Part shown: one piece after another, positions 31,162 to 51,803 of the stretch
Layout of the letters: every line of letters starts with the position of its first letter
How positions within the stretch are numbered: the first letter of the stretch is position 1
Origin: an uncultured Desulfosarcina sp.
GTDB taxonomy: Bacteria; Desulfobacterota; Desulfobacteria; Desulfobacterales; Desulfosarcinaceae
NCBI GenBank assembly: GCA_963674945.2
Contig: CAXXWQ010000003.1
Span: 2,528,001 to 2,592,000, forward strand
DNA: 64,000 nucleotides
Reading direction: 5' to 3'
The notes under the pieces: model-generated
Database searches by the model: none
Seen by the model: only the letters and a program-made list of their open reading frames with translations
What the model was told of the DNA's origin: nothing
Position numbers and translations under genes: made by a program

Positions 31162-32007
31162 ATGGACACATATTATATCGACGGAGAGTACGTTTTGGAA
31201 GAAGATGCGAAGATCTCCGTAAAAGACATGAGTATTTTACGGGGATACGGGGTTTTCGATTTCCTGCGGACCTATAACCGTCGGCCCTTTTATCTCGACA
31301 CTCACATCGGACGACTGGCCCGTTCGGCCCGCCTCATCAATCTGGCCATGCCTTTGGGAAATGAGCAGATCGAGAAGATCGTCATGGAAACCATGGCGAA
31401 AAACCCCCACCATGACGAAGCCAACATCCGTCTCGTGGTCACCGGCGGCGTCAGCCCCGACTCCATTACGCCGGCGGACAACCCAAAACTGATGGTCATG
31501 GTCACCGGACTGCATGCCTGCCCTGCCGAATGGTACGACGAGGGCGTGGCCATCATCACCACCCATGCCGAAAGATATATGCCCGGCGCCAAGAGCATCA
31601 ACTATATCCCGGCCATATTGGCCTTGAGCCGCGCGAGACAGCAAGACGCCATCGAATCCATTTACGTCGATCACCTCGGACGTCTGCTGGAAGGCACGAC
31701 CACGAACTTCTTCGCCTTTATCGGCGATACGCTGGTGACGCCGTCCGTATCGATCCTGCCAGGCGTTACCCGCCAGGTGATCATCTCCCTGGTCGAAAAG
31801 GAGTTCGATCTTCAGATCCGAGACGTTCACAAGGATGAAATCCGCTTGATGGACGAGGCGTTTCTCACCGCATCCAACAAGGAGGTGGTCCCGGTTGTCA
31901 GGATGGACGACTACCGGTTCGGCGACGGAAACCCGGGCGAGCGCACCCTCCGCATCATGGCGCTCTTTTCGGAATTTACCCGTAAATATGGAGAAGAGAG
32001 GGTGTGA
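31162..32007 (+). CDS. Aminotransferase class IV (branched-chain or D-amino acid transaminase)
   Basis: RGYGVFDFLR, AKSINY (PLP lysine), EGTTTNFF, ILPGVTR and DEAFLTAS. Confidence 0.88.
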   Translation: MDTYYIDGEYVLEEDAKISVKDMSILRGYGVFDFLRTYNRRPFYLDTHIGRLARSARLINLAMPLGNEQIEKIVMETMAKNPHHDEANIRLVVTGGVSPDSITPADNPKLMVMVTGLHACPAEWYDEGVAIITTHAERYMPGAKSINYIPAILALSRARQQDAIESIYVDHLGRLLEGTTTNFFAFIGDTLVTPSVSILPGVTRQVIISLVEKEFDLQIRDVHKDEIRLMDEAFLTASNKEVVPVVRMDDYRFGDGNPGERTLRIMALFSEFTRKYGEERV

Positions 32008-32035
32008 TTGCCGGATTGCATCAAATCTTAGGGAC

Positions 32036-32136
32036 TTGAACGTCGAACTTCCAACATTGAACATTGGATTCTATCTTTTTTGAAAACGATGGAGCGAAGC
32101 GATTGCCTCATGGGACGTTGGACGTTCGACGTTCAA
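32036..32136. repeat. Inverted heptamer-repeat element (TTGAACR type) with core motif
   Basis: TTGAACG TCGAACT TCCAACA TTGAACA ... CGTTGGA CGTTCGA CGTTCAA. Centre GATGGAGCGAAGCGA is the reverse complement of the core start. Confidence 0.72.
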
Positions 32137-32217
32137 AGCGGTTATCCTAGTGGTTTGTCAGATACCAATGGACATCGCCCAACGGTTTGTATATATTCGG
32201 CCCTCATCAGGGGCAAT

Positions 32218-32279
32218 TTGAAAACGTCCCCTCTGACTCAATATCGGCGTTGGGGCGAGTTGCCCAATCCTCGAAATAC
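32218..32279 (-). repeat. Half copy of the structured repeat family
   Basis: Minus strand reads GTATTTCGAGGATTGGGCAACTCGCCCCAACGCCGATAT...GAGGGGACGTTTTCAAA, matching 59240-59303. Confidence 0.7.
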
Positions 32280-32311
32280 GACATCGGATTAGCAGGAAAG
32301 GAACACACGAC

Positions 32312-33181
32312 ATGGCGCGAGAAGATGTGAACAAGGGATTTGCGGAGATGTTTAAAAACGGTGTGATCATGGACGTGACCAACGCCGACCAGGCGCGCAT
32401 CGCGGAAGATGCCGGCGCATGTTCGGTCATGGCCCTGGAACGTGTTCCTTCGGACATTCGAAGCGACGGACAGGTGGCCCGCATGAGTGATCCGGCCATG
32501 ATCCAGCAGATCATGGAGGCCGTGAGCATACCGGTCATGGCCAAGGTGCGCATCGGACACTTCATGGAGGCCCGCATCCTGCAGGCCATGGGCGTGGATT
32601 TCGTGGACGAGAGCGAGGTCCTGACGCCGGCAGACGAGAAACGCCACGTGGACAAACGGGATTTCGAGGTCCCCTTTGTCTGCGGCGCCCGTAATCTGGG
32701 AGAGGCCCTTCGGCGCATCGACGAAGGCGCTGCCATGATTCGAACCAAGGGGGAAGCCGGCACGGGAAATATCGTCAATGCGGTAACGCACATGCGCGCC
32801 ATCAACGAAGAGATCGAAGCGCTTTTGGGCCTGGATGATTTCAAGATGACCCACGCCGCCGGCCAGATGCGCGTGCCGGTGGAACTGGTCCGCCAAACCC
32901 GCGAACTGGGCCGGTTGCCTGTCGTCAACTTCGCCGCCGGAGGGATCGCCACCCCCGCCGATGCCGCCCTGATGATGGCCCTGGGATCCGACGGCGTCTT
33001 CGTCGGGTCGGGAATCTTCAAATCGGAGAATCCGCCGAAGATGGCCCACGCCATCGTCCAATCGGTGATTCACTACCAGGACCCGGCAAAACTGGTGGAG
33101 ATCTCCAAGGGACTGGGGACCGCCATGATCGGCCTGGAGAACGATTCGTTGGACGTCAAGATGGCCGAACGGGGCGTGTAG
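32312..33181 (+). CDS. pdxS: Pyridoxal 5'-phosphate synthase lyase subunit
   Basis: [26 protein letters not shown] and [16 protein letters not shown] motifs. Confidence 0.97.
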
Positions 33182-33182
33182 C

Positions 33183-33740
33183 ATGCGCGTCGGCTTGCTC
33201 GGCCTGCAAGGCGCCTTTCTCGATCATCTCCCTCACCTCTCCCGCTGCGGTGTGGGCACGACCATTGTCCGCACCGCCGAGGCCCTGGAAGAGATCGACC
33301 GTCTGATCATCCCCGGCGGTGAGAGCACGGTGATGGCAAAGTTCCTGGACGAATTCGCCATGACGTCTCCCCTCACCCGGCGTATTGAAGCGGGTATGCC
33401 GGTATGGGGGATCTGTGCCGGAAGTATCTTACTGGCAGACCGAGTGGACGGCAGGCCCGGCCATTTGCGAGTTCTCCCGGCGTCCGTGACCCGCAATGCC
33501 TACGGCCGCCAGATCGCCAGCCTGGAATTTCCCATCGATGTCCCCATTCTCGGAATCAAAGACTACAACGCCATCTTCATCCGCTCCCCGCGATTCGAGC
33601 GGGTGGATGAATCCGTTCAGGTGTATGCCTATCGTGACACAGATCCCGTCTTCCTACGCCATAACAATATCATGGCCACTACGTTTCATCCGGAATTGAA
33701 TGAGGATGATCTGTTCCATCGTTACTTTTTGTCGCTGTAA
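33183..33740 (+). CDS. pdxT: PLP synthase glutaminase subunit
   Basis: LQGAF, PGGEST, GICAG, RNAYGRQ and FHPE motifs. Confidence 0.96.
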   Translation: MRVGLLGLQGAFLDHLPHLSRCGVGTTIVRTAEALEEIDRLIIPGGESTVMAKFLDEFAMTSPLTRRIEAGMPVWGICAGSILLADRVDGRPGHLRVLPASVTRNAYGRQIASLEFPIDVPILGIKDYNAIFIRSPRFERVDESVQVYAYRDTDPVFLRHNNIMATTFHPELNEDDLFHRYFLSL

Positions 33741-33981
33741 ATTTCATTTCTTTGTTGAAAATCTATTATCTTTTCGTTACTTATCTAAGTATTTTCTTGT
33801 TTCACCATTTCCAAAAAAATAAAGTTACATCGGATGTCTATTTGACCCGTTAGCTGCTTATCTTTTTTATTCAGCTCATGGTCGAAGGAGTAAGATAATG
33901 ATGTGGCTGTGTTTCTTGACCGTGTCTGACTTTGATTGAACGATTTTCGTGCATACTGCAAGTTCAACTTGATAGAAGCTC

Positions 33982-36900
33982 GTGATGATTCTGGCGCAAG
34001 CGACAGCGAAACTGCAGAGCCCGCAGGTATCCAACGTCTATTATCGCAAACACTTGTTTGCATGGTTGAATCAAGCTCGTAAGCAGCCGGCAGTTTGGAT
34101 TTCCGCAGGAGCGGGTTCCGGTAAAACAACATTGGTGGCCAGCTATTTAAAGGAAAGTGGTCATCCCACCATCTGGTACCAGGTGGACAGTGGCGATGAG
34201 GATATCGCCTCTTTCTTTTTTAATCTTGGCCTTGCAGGCAAAAAGGCTGGGCCGAAAAAAAGGAAATCTCTTCCCCTGTTCACCCCCGAATACGCTCAAA
34301 ATCTCTCCACCTTTACGCGCAATTTCTTTCGTGCCTTCTATGGCAGACTGCCGCAAAATTCCGTTATTGTGCTGGATAACTATGAATCCGTTTCCGAAAA
34401 TTCGGACCTACATGAAATCCTGCGCATCGGGTTGGAGGAAATTCTTCAAGATCTCAATGTGTTCGTGATCAGCCGACAGGACCCGCCACCCGTCTTTGCA
34501 CGGTTGAGAGCCTGCGGCAACCTACCGATGCTGCACTGGGCAGACCTCCATTTGTCCAGAAAAGAGTGTGCCGCCATCATCCGACTCAAGACAGATAGAA
34601 AATTGTCTGAGAAAGAGTTACAGACGCTGTATGATCGAACCAATGGTTGGGTGGCGGGATTAGTCTTGGCTATTGAAGAGCTCTCACAAAAAGGTCATTC
34701 CTGCTCGCCGATGGACTTTTCCAACCATTCGCTTTTTTACGACTATTTCGACAAAGAGATTTTCAGGAACATTGACCCCGCTTGTCAAGAGTTCATGCTG
34801 AAAACGGCCATATTCCCCCAGATGACGATTCGCATGGCAAAGGATCTGAGCGGAATTGACGATACAGAGAAAATCCTCAATTTTCTAGTAAAGAAGAATT
34901 TTTTTACGGTTTTCAAGCCTGATGCGTCTCCTTCGTATGTCTACCACGATCTTTTTCGCTCATTTCTCAACGCCAAGGCAGCCGACGTATTTAATAAACC
35001 TCACTATAAAAAAGTCGTTCAAAAAGCTGCGTCCCTCTTGAAGGAAACGGGTCAGGACGAATACGCCGTAGAACTGTATCATCGATCAGAGGATTGGCAG
35101 TCGTTGTTGGAACTGGTTATCAACAATGCACAAGCATTGCTGGAAAAAGGCAAGGTGCATACCCTGGAAAAATGGATCGGTCTGCTTCCCGAACCATACC
35201 GGCAGAGCCATCCCTGGATCCTCCACTGGATGGGAGCATGCCGTATATCCTTGGATCCATTGAATTCAAGAAAATGCTACGAAAAAGCATTCCATCTGTT
35301 TCGCAATAAAAAGGATCCAATTGGAACATGTCAATCATGGGCTGGAATTATCGAGTCCTATATCTTTTTCCTGGATAATTTAAAGGATTTGGGTAAAAGG
35401 GTGAAAGAATTCATGACATTTATCCAGGAGTTCCCCGAATTTCCCGATCCTGAAATCGAAGTTCGCGTGGTCAACTGCATGATCAGTGCACTGGTGTATT
35501 GCAACACACACCACGAAGAGCTCACAAAATGGGCAATTCGGGCAAAAGAGATCATCAAGGCATCATCCGGTTCCGATATCGCGATCAAGTTGAACGGCCT
35601 ACTCATCCCCTATTGCGGATGGATCGGCAAATTCCCGTTGTACAGGTTTGTTGTTGATCTGCAGCGGGATGTATTAAAGAAAACGAAATCATTATACCTA
35701 TCCCAACTGAAATTTTATATCGCCGAGGCCCACTTGGGGTGGCTGACCGCCGAATGGGAGGTTTGTGACAGCGCAGTTACAAAAGGCAAAAATTTATCCA
35801 AACAGACCGGTATTAGATTGTTGGACAACGAATTCATCTCTGCTGAAATCTACCGTCATGCGTCTTCCACATTCGATATCCAACGCTTGGACAGATTGCT
35901 GGTCCAAATGGAGTCATATACTGACTCGACCCCTTCCATCATGAGGGCAAATATCTACTTTCTAAAAGGGTGGATCGCCTTTGTGAAAAAAGATATGGAC
36001 CAGGCCTTTCATAATGTTGACAAGGCAATGAAAACAGTAGAGGTGAACTGCGGCCCTCCGTTTAATTATGCCCTTAGCCATCTGGCAATGGTTTATGTTC
36101 AGCTCGTATATGATAACAATGAAAAGGTGGAAGAGAGTTTACATATAGCCCTCACAATCGGCAACCACATTGGAGCCGACAATCTGTTGTACCACGGGTA
36201 TTGTTTGCAGGCATACCAAAAGTTTAAAAATGGTAGTGACCAAAAAGGACTGGCATCCTTGAAAAAGGCGATGGCTGTGGGCAGCAATGCAAAGATCTAC
36301 AACTTTCCCTGGTGGAGTCCCAAAATCATGACCTTCTTATGTCAGAAAGCCTTGGAAAATGGGATCGAACCGTCATTCGTCAGCTACCTGATTCAAAAAC
36401 GTGATCTATTTCCCAAGACCCCACCTTTACATATTTACAACTGGCCCTGGCCTGTTAAGATCTATACTTTGGGAAAATTCAGCATCTTTAAAAAAGACGA
36501 GGAAATCCGCTTTTCTGGAAAGGCCCAGAAAAAGCCCATTGACCTTCTCAAGTCACTGCTCGCCTTCGGCAGCATTGATGTCCCGGTGAACCGATTGGCC
36601 GACGCCCTATGGCCGGACTCGGAAGGGGACGCGGCCTATCAATCCTTTACCATGGCGTTGAAGCGGCTTCGAAAGCTTCTCGGCGGAAAGGATACGATCA
36701 TTCTCAGCGAGGGTCTGGTCTCTTTGAATCCGAGAATATGCTGGACGGACATCCGAGCATTTGAGTTTGCCCTCGAAAAAAACACCGCCGAAAAAGATCG
36801 TCTAAGTAAAGCCGTTGACCTATACAAAGGACCATTTCTCGCCGAAGATACTGATTCGTTTTGGGCGGCCCCCATGCAGATCCGTCAGAATCATAAATAT

Positions 36901-37167
36901 CTTGCGGCGATCAAAGCACTTGCAAAGATCCACGAAAAATCGGGAGACTGGGACAACGTCATCGACTGCTATGAAAAAGGGCTCGATGCCGATGATTTGT
37001 CAGAACCACTGTATCGTGAATTAATGAGTTGCTACGAACGACTCGGTCAGATGTCTCAAGTTGTCGGCATCTTCGATCGCTGTAAAAAAATTCTGAGAGC
37101 CAAGTGCGATATCGAACCATCCAGAGAAACGATCGATCTATATCGTAAATTAATAAAGCCAAACTAA
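33982..37167 (+). CDS. MalT-like STAND NTPase / TPR / wHTH-BTAD (SARP-type) transcriptional regulator
   Basis: Walker A AGAGSGKTT, Walker B IVLDNY, TNGWVAGL and YHDLFRSFL. C-terminal KIYTLGKF...LWPD...LKRLRKLL and LYKGPFL...IEPSRET. Confidence 0.88.
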   Translation: MMILAQATAKLQSPQVSNVYYRKHLFAWLNQARKQPAVWISAGAGSGKTTLVASYLKESGHPTIWYQVDSGDEDIASFFFNLGLAGKKAGPKKRKSLPLFTPEYAQNLSTFTRNFFRAFYGRLPQNSVIVLDNYESVSENSDLHEILRIGLEEILQDLNVFVISRQDPPPVFARLRACGNLPMLHWADLHLSRKECAAIIRLKTDRKLSEKELQTLYDRTNGWVAGLVLAIEELSQKGHSCSPMDFSNHSLFYDYFDKEIFRNIDPACQEFMLKTAIFPQMTIRMAKDLSGIDDTEKILNFLVKKNFFTVFKPDASPSYVYHDLFRSFLNAKAADVFNKPHYKKVVQKAASLLKETGQDEYAVELYHRSEDWQSLLELVINNAQALLEKGKVHTLEKWIGLLPEPYRQSHPWILHWMGACRISLDPLNSRKCYEKAFHLFRNKKDPIGTCQSWAGIIESYIFFLDNLKDLGKRVKEFMTFIQEFPEFPDPEIEVRVVNCMISALVYCNTHHEELTKWAIRAKEIIKASSGSDIAIKLNGLLIPYCGWIGKFPLYRFVVDLQRDVLKKTKSLYLSQLKFYIAEAHLGWLTAEWEVCDSAVTKGKNLSKQTGIRLLDNEFISAEIYRHASSTFDIQRLDRLLVQMESYTDSTPSIMRANIYFLKGWIAFVKKDMDQAFHNVDKAMKTVEVNCGPPFNYALSHLAMVYVQLVYDNNEKVEESLHIALTIGNHIGADNLLYHGYCLQAYQKFKNGSDQKGLASLKKAMAVGSNAKIYNFPWWSPKIMTFLCQKALENGIEPSFVSYLIQKRDLFPKTPPLHIYNWPWPVKIYTLGKFSIFKKDEEIRFSGKAQKKPIDLLKSLLAFGSIDVPVNRLADALWPDSEGDAAYQSFTMALKRLRKLLGGKDTIILSEGLVSLNPRICWTDIRAFEFALEKNTAEKDRLSKAVDLYKGPFLAEDTDSFWAAPMQIRQNHKYLAAIKALAKIHEKSGDWDNVIDCYEKGLDADDLSEPLYRELMSCYERLGQMSQVVGIFDRCKKILRAKCDIEPSRETIDLYRKLIKPN

Positions 37168-37184
37168 ATTTTAATTATTTTTCC

Positions 37185-37206
37185 CATCCGTTAGTCATCC
37201 GTTAGT
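37185..37206 (+). promoter_or_regulatory. Perfect 11-bp direct repeat, candidate SARP/OmpR-type operator
   Basis: CATCCGTTAGT twice in tandem, between the regulator and the downstream gene cluster. Confidence 0.6.
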
Positions 37207-37383
37207 TTCGATCGGTTATTGCCTCTTTGTCGATGAATTCCAGATGTATTTTTAGGTGGGAGCACCTCAAGACTTCTTTATTTTAAATTCAAAAGTAAGA
37301 AGTATACGAGGTTATAAATTATAACGACTTTGATCTTATTGATATTTATCTCATTTCGCGACCAAGAAAAGTGAGGTGGAATT

Positions 37384-38040
37384 ATGAATCGATTCGGGAA
37401 TGTATCTTTTTTTTGCGGTGTTGTAATGGTTCTATTTTTTCTTTCCTGCGGCGGTGGTGAGGACGATGCTAATGACGATGTTGTCATCGACCCAGTCGAA
37501 TATGAAGGGGAAATAAAAGGATATGTATTTTTTCCAGCATATATCTCATATTCTGATTGGAAAGAAAATATGAGAAGGTGCGCCCTTCAAGTGACGGGCC
37601 AATGTGATGGAAGGGGGTATGCACGTTCCGTAGATTACACAATTTCAGATTTACTTCTCTGTGATGAAGGCTATTGCGAATATACATATGGGTCTTCTCG
37701 ATGGGACAAAGATCCCGAATATTCCGGAGACCAAAATGAAAGCATACTCGTTACACTCTATGATAGTAGTTATGAATTCGTTGATGACATATTAACATCC
37801 AGTGATGGCTATTACAATTTCAGCAAACTTCCAGATGGTTACTATTTTTTAAATGCATATTGCGAACGGTTAAGTGAATCAGATCCTGATGAAACTATCG
37901 ACACATTCGAAGCTTGGTCAGTTATAATCGAAGTTAGTGAGGAAGGGCCAGAAGGTTTATTCCCACTGAAAGATTTGTATCAAGTGTATATAACGTCGAT
38001 CCCAAAATCTGAAGGGATCATGAATGAGGTGTTTTGGTAA
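37384..38040 (+). CDS. Acidic lipoprotein with a CnaB/SdrD-B-like beta-sandwich
   Basis: Lipobox FLSC followed by GGG; VTLYD...TSSDGYYNFSKLPDGYY pattern; GAGGTG SD. Confidence 0.7.
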   Translation: MNRFGNVSFFCGVVMVLFFLSCGGGEDDANDDVVIDPVEYEGEIKGYVFFPAYISYSDWKENMRRCALQVTGQCDGRGYARSVDYTISDLLLCDEGYCEYTYGSSRWDKDPEYSGDQNESILVTLYDSSYEFVDDILTSSDGYYNFSKLPDGYYFLNAYCERLSESDPDETIDTFEAWSVIIEVSEEGPEGLFPLKDLYQVYITSIPKSEGIMNEVFW

Positions 38041-38173
38041 AACACACAATAATTCGGTGATAGATTAACATCTAAATTCTATATGTTTGTTTACAAAATA
38101 AAACTTAATTGTTTCGAATTTGATGTAAAATAAATATTAGCAGGAGTAATTTAGTATCAACTTAGGCAAAATT

Positions 38174-39658
38174 ATGAATTTTAAGTATCTTTTTATTACA
38201 TTAAAAATAACACTATATCTTTTTACTGTCTTCTTAATTTTATCTTTAACAAAAGATCCGATATTGTTAGCTGAGAATTATAAAGGATTAAAAGTTGTAA
38301 AAACTATAAATGGAAAAAATGTTATACTTTATAAAGAAAGCCATGCATTGATTATTGGGATCAGTAATTATATAGCAGGATGGCCAAGGTTGGAAAGCGT
38401 AACATCTGAAATTCAAAAAGTTGATTTAATGTTAAATAAAATTGGATTTAATACAACATTGATATCGAATCCTAATAGTGAACAACTCTACACTGCATTT
38501 AAATCTTTTATAAATAGATATGGACTGGATAGTGAGAATAGATTGTTGATCTTTTATTCTGGTCATGGACATTCTAGAAATAATGGGAAAAAAGGTTATA
38601 TTGTACCTATAGATGCCCCAGTCCCACAGGAGAATGAAAAAGAATTTGTTAGGAAAGCCATAAGTATGGATCAAATTATAACATGGTCAAAAAGAATAGA
38701 AGCCAAACATGCTTTATTTGTTTTTGATAGTTGTTTCTCAGGTACGATCTTCAAGACTAAATCGTTACCTGAGCATCCACCACACATCTCAGATAAAACA
38801 TCAAGACCGGTTAGACAGTACATAACAGCTGGGAGTTCTGGAGAAGTGGTTCCTGCAAGAAGTGTTTTTACTCCTTCGTTCATTCGGGCATTATCTGGTG
38901 AGGGTGATATGGATAATGATGGATATGTTACTGGGACAGAACTTGGCTTATATCTTCATAAAAAAGTAATGTCTTATTCTGTTGGTCAACATCCACAGTA
39001 TGGTAAAATCAAAGATCCTGATTTAGATGAAGGCGATTTTGTTTTCATAATTAAAAGTCGTAAAGATGACATAAATATAGATACTCTGGTTGATAGCAAA
39101 TTTGATGATCCCTTATATTCACAAAAAGATATTAATCTAAAATTAACTATCCTTCCAGATAATAATAATACTGTATTAAGAATTAATGGAAGAGAATACG
39201 ATAATAGAGAAATCAAATTTTCCCATCAAAATAAAATTAGTTTGTCAATAATCAATAAAGAGACGATTTGGGATCCTTACCAAAAAAAAGATGTTAACAA
39301 ATGGAAAAATTTTGATAAACTTATCATGATCGATCCGAATCATAACTACAATATTTATGTTAAGTTAGACGAATGGAAACCTGGTATTAAAAAAGTCATT
39401 GACTTTCCAGTCATAACTAAAACCCAATCTGTATATCTTCCAGCAAAAGACTTATTTTTTATTAAAAGAGGGGAAGGATATGTATCTAAAACCATAATTG
39501 ATCGAGATGAAATGTCTCATATTCTAATTGATAAGTATGGCTTGAGTCCGATTGAGGCTGATAAAATCGTAAATAAAGCAAAAAAATCATCGGATTACCT
39601 AACTGTCAAGATTGAACAACCTGGTAAATGGTTAATCGGACAGTTCTCTATAAATTAA
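38174..39658 (+). CDS. Caspase-family (C14) peptidase with N-terminal signal/TM segment
   Basis: HALIIGISNY, IFYSGHG (catalytic His), FDSCFSG (catalytic Cys) and DMDNDGYVTGTEL. Confidence 0.88.
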   Translation: MNFKYLFITLKITLYLFTVFLILSLTKDPILLAENYKGLKVVKTINGKNVILYKESHALIIGISNYIAGWPRLESVTSEIQKVDLMLNKIGFNTTLISNPNSEQLYTAFKSFINRYGLDSENRLLIFYSGHGHSRNNGKKGYIVPIDAPVPQENEKEFVRKAISMDQIITWSKRIEAKHALFVFDSCFSGTIFKTKSLPEHPPHISDKTSRPVRQYITAGSSGEVVPARSVFTPSFIRALSGEGDMDNDGYVTGTELGLYLHKKVMSYSVGQHPQYGKIKDPDLDEGDFVFIIKSRKDDINIDTLVDSKFDDPLYSQKDINLKLTILPDNNNTVLRINGREYDNREIKFSHQNKISLSIINKETIWDPYQKKDVNKWKNFDKLIMIDPNHNYNIYVKLDEWKPGIKKVIDFPVITKTQSVYLPAKDLFFIKRGEGYVSKTIIDRDEMSHILIDKYGLSPIEADKIVNKAKKSSDYLTVKIEQPGKWLIGQFSIN

Positions 39659-39909
39659 CCACAATTAACTCGCCAACAACTTAACAGATATCAGATCGAA
39701 AGAGAAAATATAACAAGTAGTTATAATAGTTATCAACCTGCTATATTAAGGTCAAAAATAAAATTCGAATTGACTTGATATTTACGAAAATTTCTTACTC
39801 TTAAAAAAATGTGACCGATTAAGTTCTGGCTGTTATTCCAGCTTCAAATCCGATTTTAAATGATAGAAACAATAATTATAATATTTTTAAATAAAAATTG
39901 GAGGTAAAT

Positions 39910-40686
39910 ATGAAAAAGCTAAAGGTTTGCGGAATTGGTTTGATTCTTTCATTCTTATCTTTGTTTAATATTTTAATACCTAACGTCCTTAGAGCAGAAC
40001 TATTTGAGTCTAAAATACAAACAGAAAAAAGTATTAAAACGGTTTTGGAAACTCTTAAAACAAGTCTTGTTAAGGAAGAAATAATTAAATACGGATTGGA
40101 TGAAAGTGAGGCACAGCGACTGATAAATGCTTTTACTGATATTGAATTCATTGATTCATTATCGAAAATTGAAAATATACTACTAAACAAAAGACTTGAT
40201 AAGGCAAAAAAACATTCAATAAATATGCTAATGAAGCAACTAAAACTTACTTTTGATAAGCATGCTGACGACGACTTAAAAATCAAACTTACAAATTTCC
40301 ATGAGCAAGCTCATCTGTATCAAAATATTATAACTTCAGAATTGAGTGACGGTAGATCATCTAATAAACTAAATATATACACTTTGCAAAGAGAAATAAC
40401 ACTTGATAAACTTGTCACTATGGGAACTAATGAAGCAAACGCATTCAACATAGTTGATAAGCTAAGCAAAATTGATCTTGATAGGATTTTTGATAAGGAT
40501 ATTCACATAGAATATGCCGCTGGTTACAAAATGGGCAAGGGGTTAGCTTGGGGATTAATAATTGCTGGATCTGCGTTAATTGCATCTGCCATGGGAAGCG
40601 AGGGTAGCTTTTGGGCCTTAACGGCAGGAGGTTTTGCATGCATTTTAGTTGCTTTTTGGGGTCTCGGAGTATTGGATAATATATAG
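39910..40686 (+). CDS. Exported protein with two PA2779-like repeats and a hydrophobic C-terminal hairpin
   Basis: Signal peptide ending LRA, two G..eA..l..L repeats, then AAG and a 53-aa Gly/Ala-rich hydrophobic tail; GGAGGT SD. Confidence 0.65.
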   Translation: MKKLKVCGIGLILSFLSLFNILIPNVLRAELFESKIQTEKSIKTVLETLKTSLVKEEIIKYGLDESEAQRLINAFTDIEFIDSLSKIENILLNKRLDKAKKHSINMLMKQLKLTFDKHADDDLKIKLTNFHEQAHLYQNIITSELSDGRSSNKLNIYTLQREITLDKLVTMGTNEANAFNIVDKLSKIDLDRIFDKDIHIEYAAGYKMGKGLAWGLIIAGSALIASAMGSEGSFWALTAGGFACILVAFWGLGVLDNI

Positions 40687-40771
40687 GAGAGGGATCTAAG
40701 CTATAAATCATGGATTTTCTATTCGCATATGTTTTCCCATATCTTTTCGATAATTAAATAGGCTTCTATCA

Positions 40772-41761
40772 ATGAACATGGTGAGATACCTTACATTTTG
40801 TTTGTCACTTAATATTCTTTTCATATTTAACGGATGCACGTATTCATGCCCGAAAATTGATTTTTCTAAGCACACATCTGAAAAAATATCAGATTTTGGG
40901 GTTGTTTACGAGGAAGCGAATAAAATTAATGATGCGGCCGTTTTATATAAAAAAGCAATTGAAAAAAATCCATGTAATTATGTTGCTTTAACTAATTTAG
41001 GCAATATTCTATACAAAAAAGGTATGATAGAAGATTCTGTTCTGAAATATGAGTCAGCGTTAAAACATAACCCTGATTATATCCCAGCGTTAAATAATTT
41101 GGGTAACTTACTAATGCTACAAAAGGATTATGAAAATGCAGAGATTAAGCTAAAGTTAGCTTATAGTATTTCAAATGAGAAACGTGAACAAAAAGCGATT
41201 TCTAATAGTCTTGGTGTGTTATATATACAACAAGGTAATGAAATAGAAGCTGAAAAATGGTTTAATATGTCAAATAATATTAAATTAGAATATATAATTG
41301 ATGATGTTCCATTTTTCCAACAAATAGAAAACGGATGTGGCCCATCTGCTCTAGCATCAATATACAATTTTTTAGGTATTAAACAATCTCCAGCACAAAT
41401 TTCTGAGAGAATTTATAATAAAAATAAACGAGGAACTTTAAATTTAAGAATACTTATAGACGCTAGAGAACAAGGATTAGAGGCGTCAATTTACAGTGGT
41501 TCAATTGAAGATATTAAAGCATCAATTGATTACGGAATTCCTATAATATTAATGATAAATTCAGGATATTCATGCTATCATTATATTATAGTGATAGGTT
41601 ATAAGGGCATAGATATGTCTTCCTTAGTAGTTCACGATGGATATAATAGAAATAAAATATACAGCAAAGAATTCCTATTAAAATCGTGGGAATTGACGAA
41701 TTATTGCACAATTTCTATACAAAAAGCATTTTCACAAACCTTTCGCCATAGTTCCAATTGA
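40772..41761 (+). CDS. TPR + C39-like cysteine peptidase lipoprotein
   Basis: Lipobox FNGC; TPR motifs (ALTNLGNIL, ALNNLGNLL); VPFFQQ..NGCGPSAL (Cys), HYIIVIGY (His) and VHDG (Asp). Confidence 0.85.
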   Translation: MNMVRYLTFCLSLNILFIFNGCTYSCPKIDFSKHTSEKISDFGVVYEEANKINDAAVLYKKAIEKNPCNYVALTNLGNILYKKGMIEDSVLKYESALKHNPDYIPALNNLGNLLMLQKDYENAEIKLKLAYSISNEKREQKAISNSLGVLYIQQGNEIEAEKWFNMSNNIKLEYIIDDVPFFQQIENGCGPSALASIYNFLGIKQSPAQISERIYNKNKRGTLNLRILIDAREQGLEASIYSGSIEDIKASIDYGIPIILMINSGYSCYHYIIVIGYKGIDMSSLVVHDGYNRNKIYSKEFLLKSWELTNYCTISIQKAFSQTFRHSSN

Positions 41762-41859
41762 TGAGGATAAATGCCGTTTCGTCCACAGTATTCGGCTGTC
41801 TTATATTAGTTCCGGGACAAGCTTTCTACTACGGCAGCAAACTTGTCTCGCTCATTCCA
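41725..41859 (-). mobile_element. Degenerate IS3-family transposase OrfA fragment
   Basis: Minus strand translates WNERDKFAAVVESLSRN*YKTAEYCGRNGIYPHQLELWRKVCENA, resembling the IS3 OrfA helix-turn-helix, with an in-frame stop. Confidence 0.65.
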
Positions 41860-42068
41860 GATCTCTTGTTTGCTATCGCTGTCTGAAATCGAAATCCTAT
41901 TTTTCACGATTCCTATCATCAATTATATATGGCAGCAACACCGCTCTCTTTTCTCTGGTTAATATCGTATGTATAAACCTGCTGTCCCTTTTATAATTCT
42001 TCAAGCCTCTTACTTTATTGGAGATCATTACTGAATTGAGAAACTTCATTCTTGAAGGTGAGAAAAAT

Positions 42069-44381
42069 ATGATGAAGAGAAGGAAACCTGATTCTTTAAG
42101 GTTTTTTACCGTGTATGTCATTTTTATTCTTTCTTCGGTATCAGTAATCTGCAGTGCAGATAGTAGAGACAATCAGAGTTTGCCCATTATAGAGACTGAC
42201 GTTGGATTTAGAACCACCTCAAGGGATATGTCCGAAATGGACGAGGGGATGCCAAGAAATATATCCCGTTTTCCAGAAGATCATGAAATCTATATCCCCT
42301 TACCACTGCCTATTTCCCAAAATCAATCTTCCTTATTTCTTGATCACAGCAATGCAGGGAACAAAGCGATATCATATGACTTAATTGCCAAGGAGGAGAC
42401 AGAACATAATGCGCTATCCACACCAATGCCCGACCAGGTATGCTCTTTGATTAAAGGATATGAGTTTGGAATAGATCCTAACCATATCTGGAACCAGGAC
42501 GAAAACGATTTCATTGAAAATGATGAAATAGAACCCAAAACATTTTCAAGTCTCTCAAAGGTTGCCAATATAAAAGATTTTCCATGGAGGGCTAATGTAA
42601 AGCTGTATATGACTTTTAATAGTGGCCGAAAAGCCTCTTGTTCTGGTGTTATGATCGATTCGATGCACGTACTGACAGCAGGCCACTGCGTACACGAAAT
42701 CCTTAGAGGAGGAACATGGGCCAGTTCCATTGTTGTTGTACCTGCATACGATACCGGCGACCGCCCGTACGGAGATGCATCGGCAGTTGAATTGCATTCG
42801 TGGACTGGATGGACGCAAAGATCTGAATTTGATCATGATGTCGGAGTCATTGATCTTGACAGACCCGTAGGGGCACTTACTGGATGGTTTGGCTATGGGT
42901 ATCATAATAATCCTGATTTTTATACTGGCAATGTATTTAATAGCGCAGGTTATCCAGGAGAATATCCATATGACGGTAAGTCCATGTATTATTGGTCCGG
43001 TAATTTTGATTCAACTGAGTCAATCTCAGGTCTGTGGTATGGCAATGAGGTTCATTTTAATAATAGATCCTATGGCGGCCAGAGTGGAAGTGGAATGTAT
43101 TCTTTCGATGGCAAGTCCAGTAGAATTGTGTATGCAGTTCTATCCAACGGTGTTGATCAACCAGGTGGCCCCACGGGTTGTCCCCGATTAACCTCTGATA
43201 AGTTCATGGATGTCAGAGATAATATCATTGGAGATGACATACCTTCAAGCGTTGATCTCATTCCCTTGAATGTGGCCGCTTTTCCATCGAGCATTGCTGC
43301 TGGAAGTTCACTGTCGTTGATGACCTATCAAGTCCACAACTACTCCTCAGCCACATGGACTGGCACGGTCGATGTTGATGTTTACCTGTCAACCGATAAT
43401 AATATCTCTACATGTGACACCATTATTCAAAGCCATAGTTTTACTTCGAGTATTGGCCCGAAATCTTCGGTTATTCTCAACGTATCTACAAAGCCAATTA
43501 TTCCCGAATCTACTCCGAGCGGAGAATATTTTTTGGGTGTGATTCTGAACCAACCGGACTGGGATGACACCAATAACGAATCGGATGGGCAGGATTCATT
43601 TCAACTTTCCGTTTTTGACAATACGCCTCCACCTGCTCCAATTATTTCCAGCTCGACCCATCCCGATGAAAATACGTGGTATTATAGCAGCAATCCTTCG
43701 TTTACATGGACAACCCCGCCCGATACATCAGGAATTGCCGGGTATAGTTATTTAATAGACAATTCATCGAATACCACCCCAGACACAATTATGGATACCT
43801 CCGGAAACGCTGCATCGGGTTCTAACCTTGCCGCCGGAGAATGGTATCTGCATGTAAGGGCTCTGGATAATGCCGACAATTGGGGCGTTGCCGACCATTT
43901 CAGAGTTAGAATCAAAGCAAACAGTTCACCAGTTCTCGATCCCGTCGGAGATCAATCTGTCATTGAAGGCAATCTGCTACAATTCACTATTACCGCATCT
44001 GATCCTGATGGTGACAATCTAAGTTTGAATGCAGGCAACATCCCAAACGATGCCGTGTTTACAGATATGGGTGATGGTACCGCCGGTTTTCGCTGGCAGA
44101 CCGGCACAGGTGATGAAGGCACCTATAAAAATATTGTTTTCACTGTAACAGATGATGGTGCCAAACCCTTAAGTGATTCAATAAATATCAACATTACAGT
44201 CGAAAGCACTAGTAGTAGCGGTGACGAGGGTGGAGGTAGTGGATGTTTTATAAACACAACAGACTCGGACATCATGGGAAAACCACAGGTTCATGGAAAA
44301 TTTCATTTACATTCCAATGGTTTATTGGATAACTTGTGGGATGTATACTCTGCAATTTTGGTCTGGGGGTCGGTCGGGTAA
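42069..44381 (+). CDS. Secreted trypsin-like (V8/glutamyl endopeptidase-type) serine protease with Ig-like repeats and a GCFI C-terminal motif
   Basis: LTAGHC, DHDVGVI and GGQSGSG triad; CARDB-, Fn3- and cadherin-like segments; GGGSGCFI near the C-terminus. Confidence 0.85.
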   Translation: MMKRRKPDSLRFFTVYVIFILSSVSVICSADSRDNQSLPIIETDVGFRTTSRDMSEMDEGMPRNISRFPEDHEIYIPLPLPISQNQSSLFLDHSNAGNKAISYDLIAKEETEHNALSTPMPDQVCSLIKGYEFGIDPNHIWNQDENDFIENDEIEPKTFSSLSKVANIKDFPWRANVKLYMTFNSGRKASCSGVMIDSMHVLTAGHCVHEILRGGTWASSIVVVPAYDTGDRPYGDASAVELHSWTGWTQRSEFDHDVGVIDLDRPVGALTGWFGYGYHNNPDFYTGNVFNSAGYPGEYPYDGKSMYYWSGNFDSTESISGLWYGNEVHFNNRSYGGQSGSGMYSFDGKSSRIVYAVLSNGVDQPGGPTGCPRLTSDKFMDVRDNIIGDDIPSSVDLIPLNVAAFPSSIAAGSSLSLMTYQVHNYSSATWTGTVDVDVYLSTDNNISTCDTIIQSHSFTSSIGPKSSVILNVSTKPIIPESTPSGEYFLGVILNQPDWDDTNNESDGQDSFQLSVFDNTPPPAPIISSSTHPDENTWYYSSNPSFTWTTPPDTSGIAGYSYLIDNSSNTTPDTIMDTSGNAASGSNLAAGEWYLHVRALDNADNWGVADHFRVRIKANSSPVLDPVGDQSVIEGNLLQFTITASDPDGDNLSLNAGNIPNDAVFTDMGDGTAGFRWQTGTGDEGTYKNIVFTVTDDGAKPLSDSININITVESTSSSGDEGGGSGCFINTTDSDIMGKPQVHGKFHLHSNGLLDNLWDVYSAILVWGSVG

Positions 44382-44425
44382 AAAGCTGAAAAACCCGGGG
44401 ATGAAATTAAGCGATTCCATAAAGG

Positions 44426-44665
44426 GTGGTCACAAAACCAGTTCATCCTGGGGAAATTTTACATAAGGAATTTCTTGAACCAATGGGTTCGAGCCAGAAT
44501 AAACTGGCTTTAGCCCTCCATGTTCCTGCACGGAGGATTAACCAAATCGTATTGGGCAAACGACGGGTTACCGCTGACACAGCACTACGTCTTGCGCGAT
44601 ATTTTGGCACGTCCGCACAGTTTTGGCTTGGTCTTCAAATGGACTATGAGATAGATGTTGCGGAG
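44426..44665 (+). pseudogene. higA: HigA-family antitoxin, 3'-truncated, with no adjacent toxin gene
   Basis: PVHPGEIL...ADTALRLARYFGTSAQFWLGLQ; homology ends near DVAE and the ORF runs on into unrelated sequence. Confidence 0.75.
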
Positions 44666-44860
44666 GTTGTTTCGTTTAACAATGCCATAAACCGTTACCA
44701 CTCAAAATCCTGTACCCTGCCCTATCTTCTTTGTTGTAAAAAACGGATCAAAGATGTGCGACATGGTCTTTTTATCCATTCCGCAGCCATTGTCAGTTAT
44801 GGTAAGCTGGACATATTCCCCTTGTGTCATATCGACATTTTTACGGCTATCCTTGTCAAG
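44666..44860 (-). pseudogene. Histidine kinase HATPase fragment with a nonsense codon
   Basis: [13 protein letters not shown]...[30 protein letters not shown] stands where the G2-box Gly is expected. Confidence 0.75.
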
Positions 44861-45029
44861 GATGAAAACCATATTTTCGTGTTGAAGGAATTTCAAATAT
44901 TGGGGCCGCAAAGGATCGAATAGTTATTGACGGGATTTGCGTTTATTGGTTAGGAAAGATCATGTTGATTCGTGATACAATTGTTACATTTTTACCCAAA
45001 TTGAACGTTTCACGCAAAAAGGAAAAACA

Positions 45030-45467
45030 ATGAAAGCTGAAATATGGGCTTTTCTTACCGCAATTTGCTGGGGAACCGGATCGCTGCTTGAGAAAAAGGG
45101 AGTCAAACTTGGAGCGCTTGCCCCGGTCATGGGCACCGCGATCAGAACAACGTTTTCTCTCCTGTTTTTGTTGGCCGTTTCTTTTCCTTTCTGGGGGCAG
45201 GTGAAAATGGCCGGTATCAGGTCAGTTTCACTGATCGCTTTCGGCGGCGGCATACTTGCCGGTGGGCTGGGAATCGTTTTTCTGTACACTGGACTAAAAG
45301 CGGGCAATCTCTCAACGGTGATGACCATCGCATTTTGTCTGGCCCCGGTTATCGGCACAATCCTCGGATACTTGGTCCTTCATGAAAGGTTGACGCCTGT
45401 GCAGATTGTGGGAATCGCTCTCTGCGTGACAGGGGCCGCCCTGGTTACATATTTTAAACAGACATGA
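45030..45467 (+). CDS. EamA/DMT family transporter (single domain)
   Basis: 145 aa with about 5 TM helices; LVLHERLTPVQIVGI motif. Confidence 0.82.
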   Translation: MKAEIWAFLTAICWGTGSLLEKKGVKLGALAPVMGTAIRTTFSLLFLLAVSFPFWGQVKMAGIRSVSLIAFGGGILAGGLGIVFLYTGLKAGNLSTVMTIAFCLAPVIGTILGYLVLHERLTPVQIVGIALCVTGAALVTYFKQT

Positions 45468-45493
45468 AATTGGACGTTACCCAGAAACAACTT

Positions 45494-47182
45494 TCATTTT
45501 TTCAATACCACACGCATGGTCCGGGCCAAATCTCTCATCACGAACGGTTTCATCAAGAGCGCTTTGCTTCCGATCTGTCTGGCTTTTTTTTCGGTAATGG
45601 TATTGCTGAATCCGGTGCAGAGGACAACGGGCAATTCCGGACGGATCGCTAACAGCTTCTGGGTTAGTTTGTCTCCGGACAGTCCCGGCATAGTGATATC
45701 AGTGATTACCAGGTCAAAATCCTGCGGCCGCTCCTCGAAGGTCTGTAATGCAGACAAACCTTCCCGGCAAACGGTTACATTGTATCCCAGTTCCTTGAGA
45801 AACTCTGTGACGATTTCAACAAGGGCCGGTTCATCATCCACAAGAAGAACATTCTCAGAACCTCTTTCCGGCAAGTCAACACAGGAGCCATCCAGGGCAT
45901 CTTCAGATTCAATAACCGGAAAAAACACCTGAAACGTCGTTCCTTGGGATGGATTGCTTTGAACGGTAATCAAACCACCAATCTGTTTGATGATGCCGTG
46001 AACCACGGAAAGCCCCAAGCCGGTTCCCTCGCCCATTTGTTTCGTTGAAAAATAGGGTTCGAAAATACGCGGTAGTAACTCTTGTGGTATTCCCACCCCG
46101 TCATCGCGCACTTCCAGTTTCAGGTATGAACCCGGTGTAACGTCGCAGTGAGAAACGCAAAAATCGTCATCGAGTTCCACATCGGTCATATTGATTGCAA
46201 TGGCACCACCCTCATCTGTCGCATGCACGGCATTGGTGCAGAGGTTCATCAGTACTTGAAGTATTTGGGTGGGGCTGGCCATCACCAGGGCGTCACTCTC
46301 CAGATTGGTGTAAATATTGATTTGCTTTGGCAGAGACGGCTGCATCAACGTAAGCGCTTCTTCTACAATGGCTTTGATTTGGATGGGTTTACCGGTGATA
46401 TCTTTTTGTCGACTGAAGGTCAAAATCTGATTGACCAACTCTTTCGCGCGATCGCATGCCTTGAGTACCTCTTGAAGGTGCTTCTCGCTGGCTCCGCCAT
46501 TTCGGCTGTGAATCAGTGCGATTTCCGTATAACCCGTGATTGCCATCAAAAAATTATTGAAGTCATGGGCAATTCCGCTGGCCAGATTGCCGATGGCCTC
46601 CATTTTCTGGGATTGAAGGAGCTGTTTTTCAAGGCTGGACAATTTGTTCTCTGTGGCTCTATGCTCCTTGATCTCATTTTCAAGGGCCTTGTTGGTGTTC
46701 TCCAATTGGAGCAGTTTTTCTTCCAGTTTATGGATAAGTGTTTCGTTATATCTCCTAAGATAGACATCTTCCGACGGGACAGCCATATCGGCGGGGGATG
46801 ATGTTTCAGATTGAGAATGGTCCAACAATTCTCGAACGGCATCTGTTAAAACGTCCGGCGGTACCGGTTTGACGATGAAGCGTTCGGCGCCCAGACTCAA
46901 GCCGAACGCTTCATCGTCCGCATCCGTGTATGTGGCGGTGTAAAAAATGAAGGGAATCGATTTGAGGCGGTTATTCAGCTTCCATTGACGACATAATGCA
47001 TAGCCGTCCATGACAGGCATGAGGATGTCTGCAATGATCAGGTCCGGTGGCTCATTTAAGGCCGCCTCCAGCGCTTCGGCGCCGTTGGTGGCAGTCTCCA
47101 CCTGGTATCCATTGCCGGTGAGAAGCACTTTTGCCATATAGCGGTTCTGGTCGTTATCATCCACAACAAGAATTTTGGTCAT
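45494..47182 (-). CDS. Hybrid histidine kinase (REC-HisKA-HATPase-REC)
   Basis: ILVVDD...DILMP, AHDFNN, GTGLGLS and a C-terminal DITMP...KPF receiver. Confidence 0.92.
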   Translation of the reverse strand: MTKILVVDDNDQNRYMAKVLLTGNGYQVETATNGAEALEAALNEPPDLIIADILMPVMDGYALCRQWKLNNRLKSIPFIFYTATYTDADDEAFGLSLGAERFIVKPVPPDVLTDAVRELLDHSQSETSSPADMAVPSEDVYLRRYNETLIHKLEEKLLQLENTNKALENEIKEHRATENKLSSLEKQLLQSQKMEAIGNLASGIAHDFNNFLMAITGYTEIALIHSRNGGASEKHLQEVLKACDRAKELVNQILTFSRQKDITGKPIQIKAIVEEALTLMQPSLPKQINIYTNLESDALVMASPTQILQVLMNLCTNAVHATDEGGAIAINMTDVELDDDFCVSHCDVTPGSYLKLEVRDDGVGIPQELLPRIFEPYFSTKQMGEGTGLGLSVVHGIIKQIGGLITVQSNPSQGTTFQVFFPVIESEDALDGSCVDLPERGSENVLLVDDEPALVEIVTEFLKELGYNVTVCREGLSALQTFEERPQDFDLVITDITMPGLSGDKLTQKLLAIRPELPVVLCTGFSNTITEKKARQIGSKALLMKPFVMRDLARTMRVVLKK

Positions 47183-50036: not shown

Positions 50037-50220
50037 CCGTATTTCCCATCAAGATAAACATTGCACATTGCGAACATTGTGGATTGCCAGGACGTGTAAT
50101 TGTATCACCCGTTTCCTCGGGCCGTACCATCCATGTTTTTCTGCAATCCCGTTAGTGTTAGGAAATTGTGCTCCAGGCAATGCTGAATGTGACGTTAGGG
50201 GCAGACCAAGTTGTTCAAAT

Positions 50221-50249
50221 AGAATATCGACCTGGCGCCTCCTTGTCAA
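50221..50249 (-). promoter_or_regulatory. Putative sigma70 promoter for the kinase operon
   Basis: TTGACA-N17-TATTCT on the minus strand. Confidence 0.55.
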
Positions 50250-50483
50250 TTTGATATTGAGGATGGTGCATAGAGGATTAAAATACCAGTAATAAGAACT
50301 TCTTGAGTATTTCTTACCTTATGGATCGAAAAGTACTTTCCGATCGACGTCCAGTGCCGGACCGACTTTTTTTCAGCGGTTACATAATTTTTCTCGTTGC
50401 CCTGTAGACTCGAACGGATCCATGAAAACATGCAAGAATTTGATACGACCGGTTCGCATCATTTGCTGGATTGCGGTTTTGAA

Positions 50484-51359
50484 TCATTTCTCCAACGCCT
50501 GTTTTACGGCGAGTCCAATTTTCTCCATGGTAAAAGGCTTCTTAACAAATTTTCCCGCACCTAACATTTCGGCCTTTTCACCTCCTCTGTTTCGGCGTAT
50601 CCACTGACGATAACGGCCTTTTGATTCGGATGAATCGATCACCAGTTTCAAGGCCTGAAACTTGGACATTTCCCGAGCGGATCGATATGTGGTCAGAAAA
50701 TTGGTGAGATTGAACAAGGGCTTTAACTCGATGGTGGCCTGAATACGACCATGTCTGATTTCCGTTCGTACCGAACCGATGTTGTCGTATCCCGTAACGA
50801 TGATTTTCTTTTTCGGTCCGATCCGGTTAATTGCCTGGATAGCGCCTAACGCCATGGAATCATTTGCGCAGATGATGGCATCGACATCGGGGTTTTTGGA
50901 CAGCAACCTGGCTGTAAGGGAAAAGGATTCGTCCGTGTGCCAGTTGGCACTTTCCGATGCACCAATTTCAATGGAACTTCCCGCCGTGAGAGCTCTGATG
51001 AACCCTTTTTTTCGCGAATCTGAATTCTCCACGCCCCATATGCCTTCTATCACGAGGACGCGACCCGAACCATTGCGTCTTGCCTTGACATAATTCCCAA
51101 TCAGTTGCGATCCGGCAAAATTGTCGGAACCGATAAAAGGAATGGAGATACCGACCATGTTCATGGTCGGTGTGTGCAACGGATTGTCTATATTGATGAC
51201 GACGATGTTTCGATCCAGTGCCTTTTTGCATAGGGGGACAAGTTTTTTTGCCATCTCATATTCGATGCCCTCTCTGGCATGAAAAACAATAGGCTGATGG
51301 AATGACTGGCGTATTCTGGGAGTACGCTTGCCTGCTGGAAGGATTCGCACCATCAGCAT
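50484..51359 (-). pseudogene. Chimeric remnant: RbsB-like sugar-binding domain fused to a frameshifted receiver C-terminus
   Basis: IGSDNFAG, CANDSMALGAI and VTGYD; no signal peptide. Tail GAGKFVKKPF, with IHPNQKAVIVSGY in another frame. Confidence 0.68.
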
Positions 51360-51803
51360 GAAGAATTAGCACAAAGAAATCAATGGGAATGGTCCGTTTT
51401 TTCTTGGCAATTTCGTTCAGAAACGATAAAATGTCCAAAATACAAAGCGGCATGGCTATTTTCCGTTTTATTTAAAAGATAAATTTGTACCAAGTCAAAT
51501 AGCACATGCCTCCCCCCTTTTATCTCTCAAAACGGGGGAAGGATACAAGACATAGCAAGGTTCCCGCGGCTGCTGTCGGCTGAACAGTTTCGTTTGGATT
51601 GGTTATCTGTGGTGATTAAGTACGTCTTGATTGAAAAGCGCGTTGGCGGTCTGTCATTTCTTCGCATCTCAATAGCGGATGCCTGTATTCTTTCCTTATC
51701 GCAGAAGCAATCTACCTTTTTCTTTTCTCATGCCGGACAAAGAGACACTTTACAACGTCGCTATATGTCAAATGATACGACACAATGAAAAACCGGGTAA
51801 ACT

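Follow-up and report, generated by a model that had tools for sequence, protein, structure and literature searches.

The described transcriptional activators closest to the regulator considered here are the large SARPs, represented by AfsR of Streptomyces coelicolor (8k60, 8hvr, 8jke), and MalT of E. coli with the LAL proteins (8bob, 1hz4). According to the accessible part of a preprint (bioRxiv 10.64898/2026.09.02.748808), large SARPs carry the SARP module at the N-terminus, then NB-ARC and a C-terminal TPR region, and an F/Y-HD latch has been shown in AfsR. The AfsR box is given in the available sections of PMC10936776 as 22 bp long, with two 11-bp repeats from -40 to -19; residue R92 of AfsR reads T-38, and substitution at T-38 or T-27 abolishes binding (PMC10936776). 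For the AfsR promoter, the accessible portion of PMC11301090 reports a 20-bp spacer and hence a -10 hexamer at -12. Here, we analyze positions 33982..44381 of a 64,000-nt stretch of DNA from an uncultured Desulfosarcina sp. (the window), in which a MalT-type regulator with a SARP module is followed by genes for a lipoprotein, a caspase-like protein, a PA2779-like protein, a C39-like peptidase and a trypsin-like protease. A sequence-only reading had proposed that these form a multi-protease system acting as an inducible envelope proteolytic cascade. Our results make it likely that the regulator binds a repeat behind its own gene and activates the lipoprotein gene, and that the caspase, the PA2779-like/C39 pair and the trypsin are separately acquired cargo.

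The regulator and its predicted operator

The regulator and the elements most closely tied to it are the following.

33982..37167, plus strand: regulator of 1061 aa with a MalT-type STAND ATPase, a helical repeat region and a C-terminal SARP module
37186..37207, plus strand: predicted operator of 22 bp, two direct repeats of 11 bp, ATCCGTTAGTC and ATCCGTTAGTT, with an 11-bp period
37217..37222, plus strand: predicted suboptimal -10 hexamer TATTGC, 9 bp downstream of the box
37384..38040, plus strand: acidic lipoprotein of 218 aa (FLSC22-GGG), probable beta-sandwich, predicted direct target of the box; GC content 39%

The regulator has a Walker A motif at residues 43-50 and YHD at residues 321-323, and its SARP module, consisting of an OmpR-type winged helix-turn-helix (wHTH) and BTAD, covers about residues 820-1061. 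The NCBIfam model for MalT matches residues 9-411 with 168 bits (cut-off 537) and Pfam BTAD matches at 1e-17; the Pfam scan of the protein gave no match to NB-ARC. Compared with the PDB, a profile of the regulator family matched MalT (8bob, E 1e-61, positions 9-411), AfsR (8k60, 8e-19) and EmbR (2fez, 9e-10), and the MalT sensor domain 1hz4 weakly only (E 2e-4), while a further profile match to AfsR, covering wHTH followed by BTAD, stood at 4e-22. The C-terminal ~240 residues were modelled by AlphaFold 2 (AF2) with a predicted local distance difference test (pLDDT) score of 95, and the top six Foldseek matches of this model were AfsR/EmbR at a template modelling score of about 0.65. Judged by these profiles and this model, the layout is MalT-like with a SARP module replacing LuxR. 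Because this domain order differs from both, the regulator falls outside the large SARP and the MalT/LAL families. No description of the STAND-repeat-SARP order or of its box was found in the literature searched, which included few subscription papers.

Relatives of the regulator occur in 13 of 61 related genomes, and the source genome has three copies. A scan of 22 of the 64 parts of the genome collection gave 622 pattern matches, 533 of which were confirmed, and 78 loci were kept; about 1800 stored stretches are estimated to match the patterns of the family.

The predicted operator begins 18 bp past the stop codon of the regulator gene, and repeats of a similar type were seen beside other regulators, either downstream or divergent. 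With a first matrix, built from 11 repeats of other regulator loci with the window excluded, the window box scored 16.3 bits at a threshold of 15 bits. Boxes reaching this threshold lie downstream of 29 of 70 independent regulators from several phyla (the 78 loci minus eight lacking a usable flank), with none on the wrong strand (0/70); such sites occurred in 0.2% of 500 random windows. A second model was retrained on 33 sites, drawn from the 78 loci only. Applied genome-wide (7.08 Mb), it ranked the site of a regulator paralog on contig C1 first (30.9 bits) and the window site second (25.8 bits), followed by a site of 20.3 bits, and the top two sites lie behind two of the three regulator paralogs of the source genome. 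Boxes of at least 18 bits are present in 44 of the 78 loci, amounting to 50 sites, 33 of which are training data, where 0.56 would be expected; among held-out regulator loci, 12 of 14 have such a box.

The boxes also resemble an AfsR-type promoter in their arrangement. Among 26 aligned boxes, a TGnTAnnnT element on which the model was not trained stands 9 bp past the box, its TAnnnT part showing T in 19, A in 25 and the last T in 17 cases. Both T residues at the predicted positions -38 and -27, located at 37191 and 37202 in the window, are invariant in 26 of 26 boxes and have the same spacing to the -10 element as in AfsR. On the protein side, R895, the equivalent of AfsR R92, is invariant in 66 of 66 regulator sequences. 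The region 33982..44381 contains one strong box only, and the operator is not among the 20 largest families reported by a repeat finder. Taken from sequence comparison, the regulator-operator module is likely real and represents a new variant of known activators. The proposal of a sensor that works at the level of transcription, with genes for exported proteins as targets, is supported, and the conserved predicted operator strengthens it.

A lookalike repeat at G000:C3:432796, beside a repressor gene of prophage-like type, was rejected; the model does not place it among its top matches. By our reading, the segment G000:C3:425000-433300 (L003) is a Mu-like prophage part in which CGTTAGT repeats precede a repressor-like gene. 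In addition, five of the 78 regulator loci (L091, L075, L087, L094, L100) hold two or three boxes, which suggests small local regulons.

Export was called here and below by a crude hydrophobicity/lipobox heuristic of our own, not by SignalP. By this heuristic, the first open reading frame (ORF) after a strong box looks exported in 19 of 36 cases, compared with 24 of 123 distant controls (p = 2e-4). A Pfam scan of 53 hand-picked neighbours returned PKD/Ig, beta-propeller, TonB, PEP-CTERM, esterase, subtilase and patatin matches and no family common to them. The window lipoprotein with its SCGGG start fits this pattern of exported targets. Its match to SdrD_B is weak and below the cut-off, a word-index search for its relatives returned only the protein itself among 84 candidates, and look-alikes in a structural atlas at 0.93-0.94, including NOMO1-like beta-sandwich clusters, serve as a lead only. 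In at least four other loci (L063:11374-11589, L109:3730-3921, L055:9261-9716 and L112:4634-4912), a small ORF whose start resembles YIVRIYR lies behind the regulator gene; the window has no such ORF. Two of these ORFs were scanned and had no Pfam match; they may encode a dedicated partner or the first target of the regulator.

The protease genes and their surroundings

Downstream of the lipoprotein gene, the following features were annotated.

38174..39658, plus strand: caspase-like (C14) protein of 494 aa with a hydrophobic N-terminus and H131/C187; GC content 30%
39910..40686, plus strand: tandem PA2779-like protein of 258 aa with a signal peptide, two PA2779-like repeats, YAAG at residues 202-205 and a hydrophobic C-terminal tail
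40772..41761, plus strand: TPR-C39 lipoprotein of 329 aa, TPR followed by a C39-like peptidase, the last ~11 residues overlapping the next feature
41726..41859, minus strand: remnant of a broken IS3-type transposase (OrfA), between the C39 and trypsin genes
42069..44381, plus strand: trypsin-like serine protease of 770 aa with H206/D257/S339, Ig-like domains and a GGGSGCFI tail; GC content 43%
44426..44911: truncated higA antitoxin of about 80 codons (plus strand), joined to an inverted histidine-kinase ATPase fragment (minus strand, 44702-44911)

Much of the earlier description of these genes was borne out: six co-oriented ORFs with the domains named there are present on the plus strand of 33982..44381, the catalytic residues of the caspase, the C39 peptidase (C189/H270/D289) and the trypsin are intact, and export signals were flagged in all five downstream genes and not in the regulator. 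That description did not contain the operator with its -10 element (37186-37222), the insertion sequence (IS) remnant or the truncated higA with the inverted kinase fragment. From the regulator to the trypsin gene, the intergenic gaps measure 216, 133, 251, 85 and 307 bp, with probable start codons at 39910 for the PA2779-like gene and at 42069 for the trypsin gene. A single public contig, possibly from the source sample, covers 31500-46610 with 0 differences, which speaks against a misassembly of the locus. PADLOC found no match for five of the six proteins, including the regulator, and a generic caspase match for the sixth.

The base composition divides the locus into blocks. The GC content of about 60% stated before for pdxS agrees with the 61% measured; the 20-25% stated for 38-41 kb is too low, since positions 38001-41000 have 30.5%, with 28-32% in 1-kb windows and 28% of the 60-nt lines at or below 25%. 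The GC content at third codon positions (GC3) is 0.54 for the regulator, 0.32 for the lipoprotein, 0.21-0.26 for the caspase, PA2779-like and C39 genes, which have 29-33% GC throughout, and 0.39 for the trypsin. The median over 255 ORFs of contig C1 is 0.65, and none of them falls below 0.27. Other genes stand downstream of pdxT in 6 of 6 relatives fetched; in the two closest, pdxT is followed by a large convergent gene, read as pyruvate:ferredoxin oxidoreductase. Rfam and tRNA scans of the window gave no matches, and the numbers of predicted sigma-70 promoters and terminators in it are at chance level. Two further parts of the window, 50001-54000 and 63001-64000, have a lower GC content as well (39-46%). 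The spacer before pdxS (32020-32285) contains two short elements that are repeated genome-wide, with about 200 blastn lines and 74-94% identity among those shown; they are like repetitive extragenic palindromes or miniature inverted-repeat transposable elements.

The caspase-like protein matches Pfam C14 at 4e-15, and its last 200 residues have no Pfam match. Homologs are 41-63% identical; of four that were scanned, all have PEGA and one also FGE-sulfatase.

Of the genes in the locus, only the adjacent PA2779-like and C39 genes recur elsewhere as a unit. NF033919 matches the PA2779-like protein with 29.6 bits, under its cut-off of 40, and a small PA2779 hidden Markov model detected only the first repeat. 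In hhalign comparisons, the two halves matched each other with a probability of 65% and canonical PA2779 with 84% and 44%, compared with 0.3% for a control from the middle of the protein. A word-index search found no relatives, but a full HMMER scan of 1.84 billion proteins gave 11 matches, nine of them real homologs; P0053, a repeat protein, was dropped as spurious. A motif like (Y/F/H)-(A/G)-(A/S)-G before the hydrophobic tail is kept in the nine relatives. The AF2 model of this protein was poor (pLDDT 55) and was not used. NF033920 matches the TPR-C39 protein with 117.3 bits, under the cut-off of 150. Among 46 matches, 38 full-length homologs are 38-49% identical to it, and lipobox C22 and the catalytic triad are invariant in 19 of 19 aligned homologs; a metagenome scan with this protein returned one weak partial match. 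The pair recurs under the consecutive accessions MHC4511611/MHC4511612 on one 2542-bp contig, and four further cases are indicated by matching contig sizes only (71799, 4205, 2480 and 5783 bp). Named relatives of the pair belong to Planctomycetota and Magnetococcales. Searched with profiles of TPR-C39 and tandem PA2779, 301 genomes from the phylum of G000 gave a match in G000 alone, and sets of 301 and 401 genomes from the phylum of G283 gave none; one of these phylum scans scored just 7 candidates per genome and is a weak negative.

The tandem PA2779-like protein is a candidate substrate of the C39 peptidase. By analogy with the double-glycine specificity of C39 peptidases, the cut is predicted at Ala-Gly 204-205 beside the membrane tail. 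As judged from sequence, this would be the sole link of a protease to another protein of the locus with comparative support.

The fragment behind the C39 gene shares 75% identity over 134 bp with a gene of genome G018, which matches Pfam HTH_Tnp_1 at 2e-15, and it contains an in-frame stop; from this DNA identity, we read it as IS3-type. The trypsin-like protein matches Pfam Trypsin at 5e-8 and Big_9 weakly, and the PDB entries closest to it are AL20 protease and glutamyl endopeptidase. A search of 300 other genomes returned homologs in six, which belong to a single genus. The label CFI-box-CTERM for its tail was rejected, as NF041770 has no match at the locus at E<=1. At the right edge, the higA fragment matches TIGR02607 over residues 4-80, and both fragments were recognized by reading all six frames and by blastn matches to other places in the source genome; by this sequence evidence, the junction is a rearrangement scar. 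Genes for higA-like antitoxins were also seen near a second regulator paralog (G000:C3:1080235-1080549) and near pdxT in G023 (L147), which suggests that such sites attract mobile DNA.

Co-occurrence of the genes and competing explanations

The neighbourhood check was run with profiles of the caspase, C39, trypsin and PA2779 domains, all four of which were detected in the window as a positive control. None of the 78 + 14 other regulator loci has a homolog of the caspase, the C39 peptidase or the trypsin, and the regulator, caspase, PA2779-like and C39 genes were not found together in any other locus examined. Likewise, none of the other genes of the locus stands in six caspase loci (6-17 kb) or six trypsin loci (~4 kb). 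Of 18 local C39 loci (~3.4 kb each), 16 have a PA2779 partner and none has any of the other genes; around the C39 and trypsin genes, flanks of no more than about 1.5 kb were covered. A box of at least 18 bits is absent from 30 caspase, C39 and trypsin loci. Together with the IS remnant, the GC3 blocks and the other genes present after pdxT in relatives, this lack of co-occurrence is what leads us to separate acquisition.

The claim of a multi-protease system is not supported. The earlier reading had itself named a failure of the genes to co-occur in other genomes as grounds for refuting it, and on this point the result goes against the cascade. That the five genes form one operon induced by the regulator, with the proteases acting as a cascade outside the cytoplasm in antagonism, defence or surface remodelling, would fit their co-orientation with gaps of 85-307 bp, the predicted export signals, the intact catalytic residues and the box ahead of the first gene, with no plus-strand terminator found in the gaps between the genes. 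We nevertheless regard it as very unlikely, given 0 of 92 other regulator loci with any of the three proteases, caspase and trypsin relatives that stand alone, an IS remnant interrupting a gene run of three composition blocks, and the PADLOC result. A wider version is very unlikely as well. In it, MalT-SARP proteins of several phyla would serve as an NLR-like platform for sensing, with a promoter that captures incoming exported cargo, here three protease modules in one inducible transcript for an extracellular proteolytic response. Unlikely, though less so, is a three-gene unit of caspase, tandem PA2779-like and TPR-C39 genes that came from one low-GC donor and landed behind the lipoprotein gene, with the trypsin separate: the uniform GC content and a GC3 below that of every ORF of contig C1 speak for it, but near relatives of the caspase occur in related genomes without the pair, the named relatives of the pair are from other groups, and a 251-bp gap lies ahead of the pair. 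As to the repeat itself, binding by another OmpR-family regulator instead of the adjacent protein is extremely unlikely. Boxes of PhoB, for example, have an 11-bp period, which the repeat shares along with a TGT core, and a site of 10.0 bits stands upstream of one among five phosphate-binding-protein-like genes; the remaining four, however, score at most 2.2 bits, the top two sites of the genome belong to regulator paralogs, and across phyla the box comes after the regulator gene, whereas at 18 bits or more it is missing from the 30 protease loci.

Several observations weigh against a regulator acting on the lipoprotein gene with separately acquired cargo behind it. The -10 hexamer of the window lacks the last T, and the third regulator paralog has no box (best 2.6 bits). 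Exported-looking ORFs are equally frequent after box-less regulators (11/21, by the same crude heuristic), so the link to export may belong to the regulator and not to the detected box. The very low GC3 shared by the caspase, PA2779-like and C39 genes makes a joint arrival possible, and since no plus-strand terminator was found between the genes of 33982..44381, they may share a single transcript. Furthermore, the linkage count comes from the scanned part of the collection, and only 39 of 70 measured regulator loci extend 7.2 kb downstream. One exception to it was seen in L072, one of the 78 loci, where a lone single-domain PA2779 gene (2828-3223) is divergent from the regulator, with no C39 gene beside it and a weak repeat of 7.8 bits in the spacer.

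For the regulator with its likely lipoprotein target, a mechanism can be drawn by analogy with MalT and AfsR. Some cytoplasmic ligand would bind the repeat region, exchange of ADP for ATP would free the YHD latch, and a pair of SARP modules, next to each other on the repeats, would occupy the -35 region and bring in RNA polymerase. Transcription may run on through the genes of the caspase, the PA2779-like protein and the C39 peptidase; it would be less likely to include the trypsin gene, which lies beyond the IS remnant.

Comparison with described systems

The C39 pair corresponds to PA2779/PA2778 (NF033919, NF033920; DUF6627) in having a small exported protein with a membrane tail directly upstream of a lipoprotein C39 peptidase. 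It differs in the duplicated domain of the partner (258 aa versus about 130) and in scores below the curated cut-offs for both proteins; compared with local PA2778-like relatives, the order is reversed, with TPR before C39. No functional study of PA2779/PA2778 or DUF6627 was evident in the same literature, and with its tandem PA2779-like/TPR-C39 variant the locus adds a little to an experimentally uncharted family. The caspase resembles bacterial metacaspases with an N-terminal helix, for which the accessible part of PMC3501461 lists 46 single-domain sequences with one such helix, abundant in Deltaproteobacteria: both have a C14 His/Cys domain, here behind a probable signal peptide. In contrast to its PEGA- or FGE-sulfatase-bearing relatives, the window protein has no Pfam match in its C-terminus.

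Cytoplasmic STAND defence systems with protease effectors, such as the Avs-like ones, resemble the locus in that a STAND ATPase has proteases as neighbours. Here, however, the STAND protein is a predicted transcription activator without a PADLOC match, and the proteases are separate, predicted to be exported and not conserved beside it. A protease cascade would matter more if true, but the comparative evidence is against it.

With E. coli MalT and the LAL proteins, the regulator shares the N-terminal STAND module and the order of sensor before output, and its family profile matches the MalT sensor domain weakly; it has wHTH and BTAD in place of the LuxR helix-turn-helix and scores below the MalT cut-off. 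With AfsR and the large SARPs, as far as described in the accessible parts of PMC10936776 and PMC11301090, it has in common wHTH and BTAD, a STAND ATPase, a repeat sensor, the YHD latch motif and equivalents of AfsR W74, R92, R94 and K95, as well as, in silico, two 11-bp repeats that make up a 22-bp box at the -35 region and keep the spacing of T-38 and T-27 to the -10 element. Unlike AfsR, its SARP module is C-terminal and its ATPase is MalT-type instead of NB-ARC, the box sequence is different, and the predicted targets are mostly genes of exported proteins and not antibiotic regulators. With an operator predicted, the family can be put to direct experimental test, and its targets, for the most part uncharacterized surface proteins, can be predicted as well. 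The family is widespread and would carry promoter activation in the style of Streptomyces into Nitrospirota, Desulfobacterota, Gammaproteobacteria and other groups.

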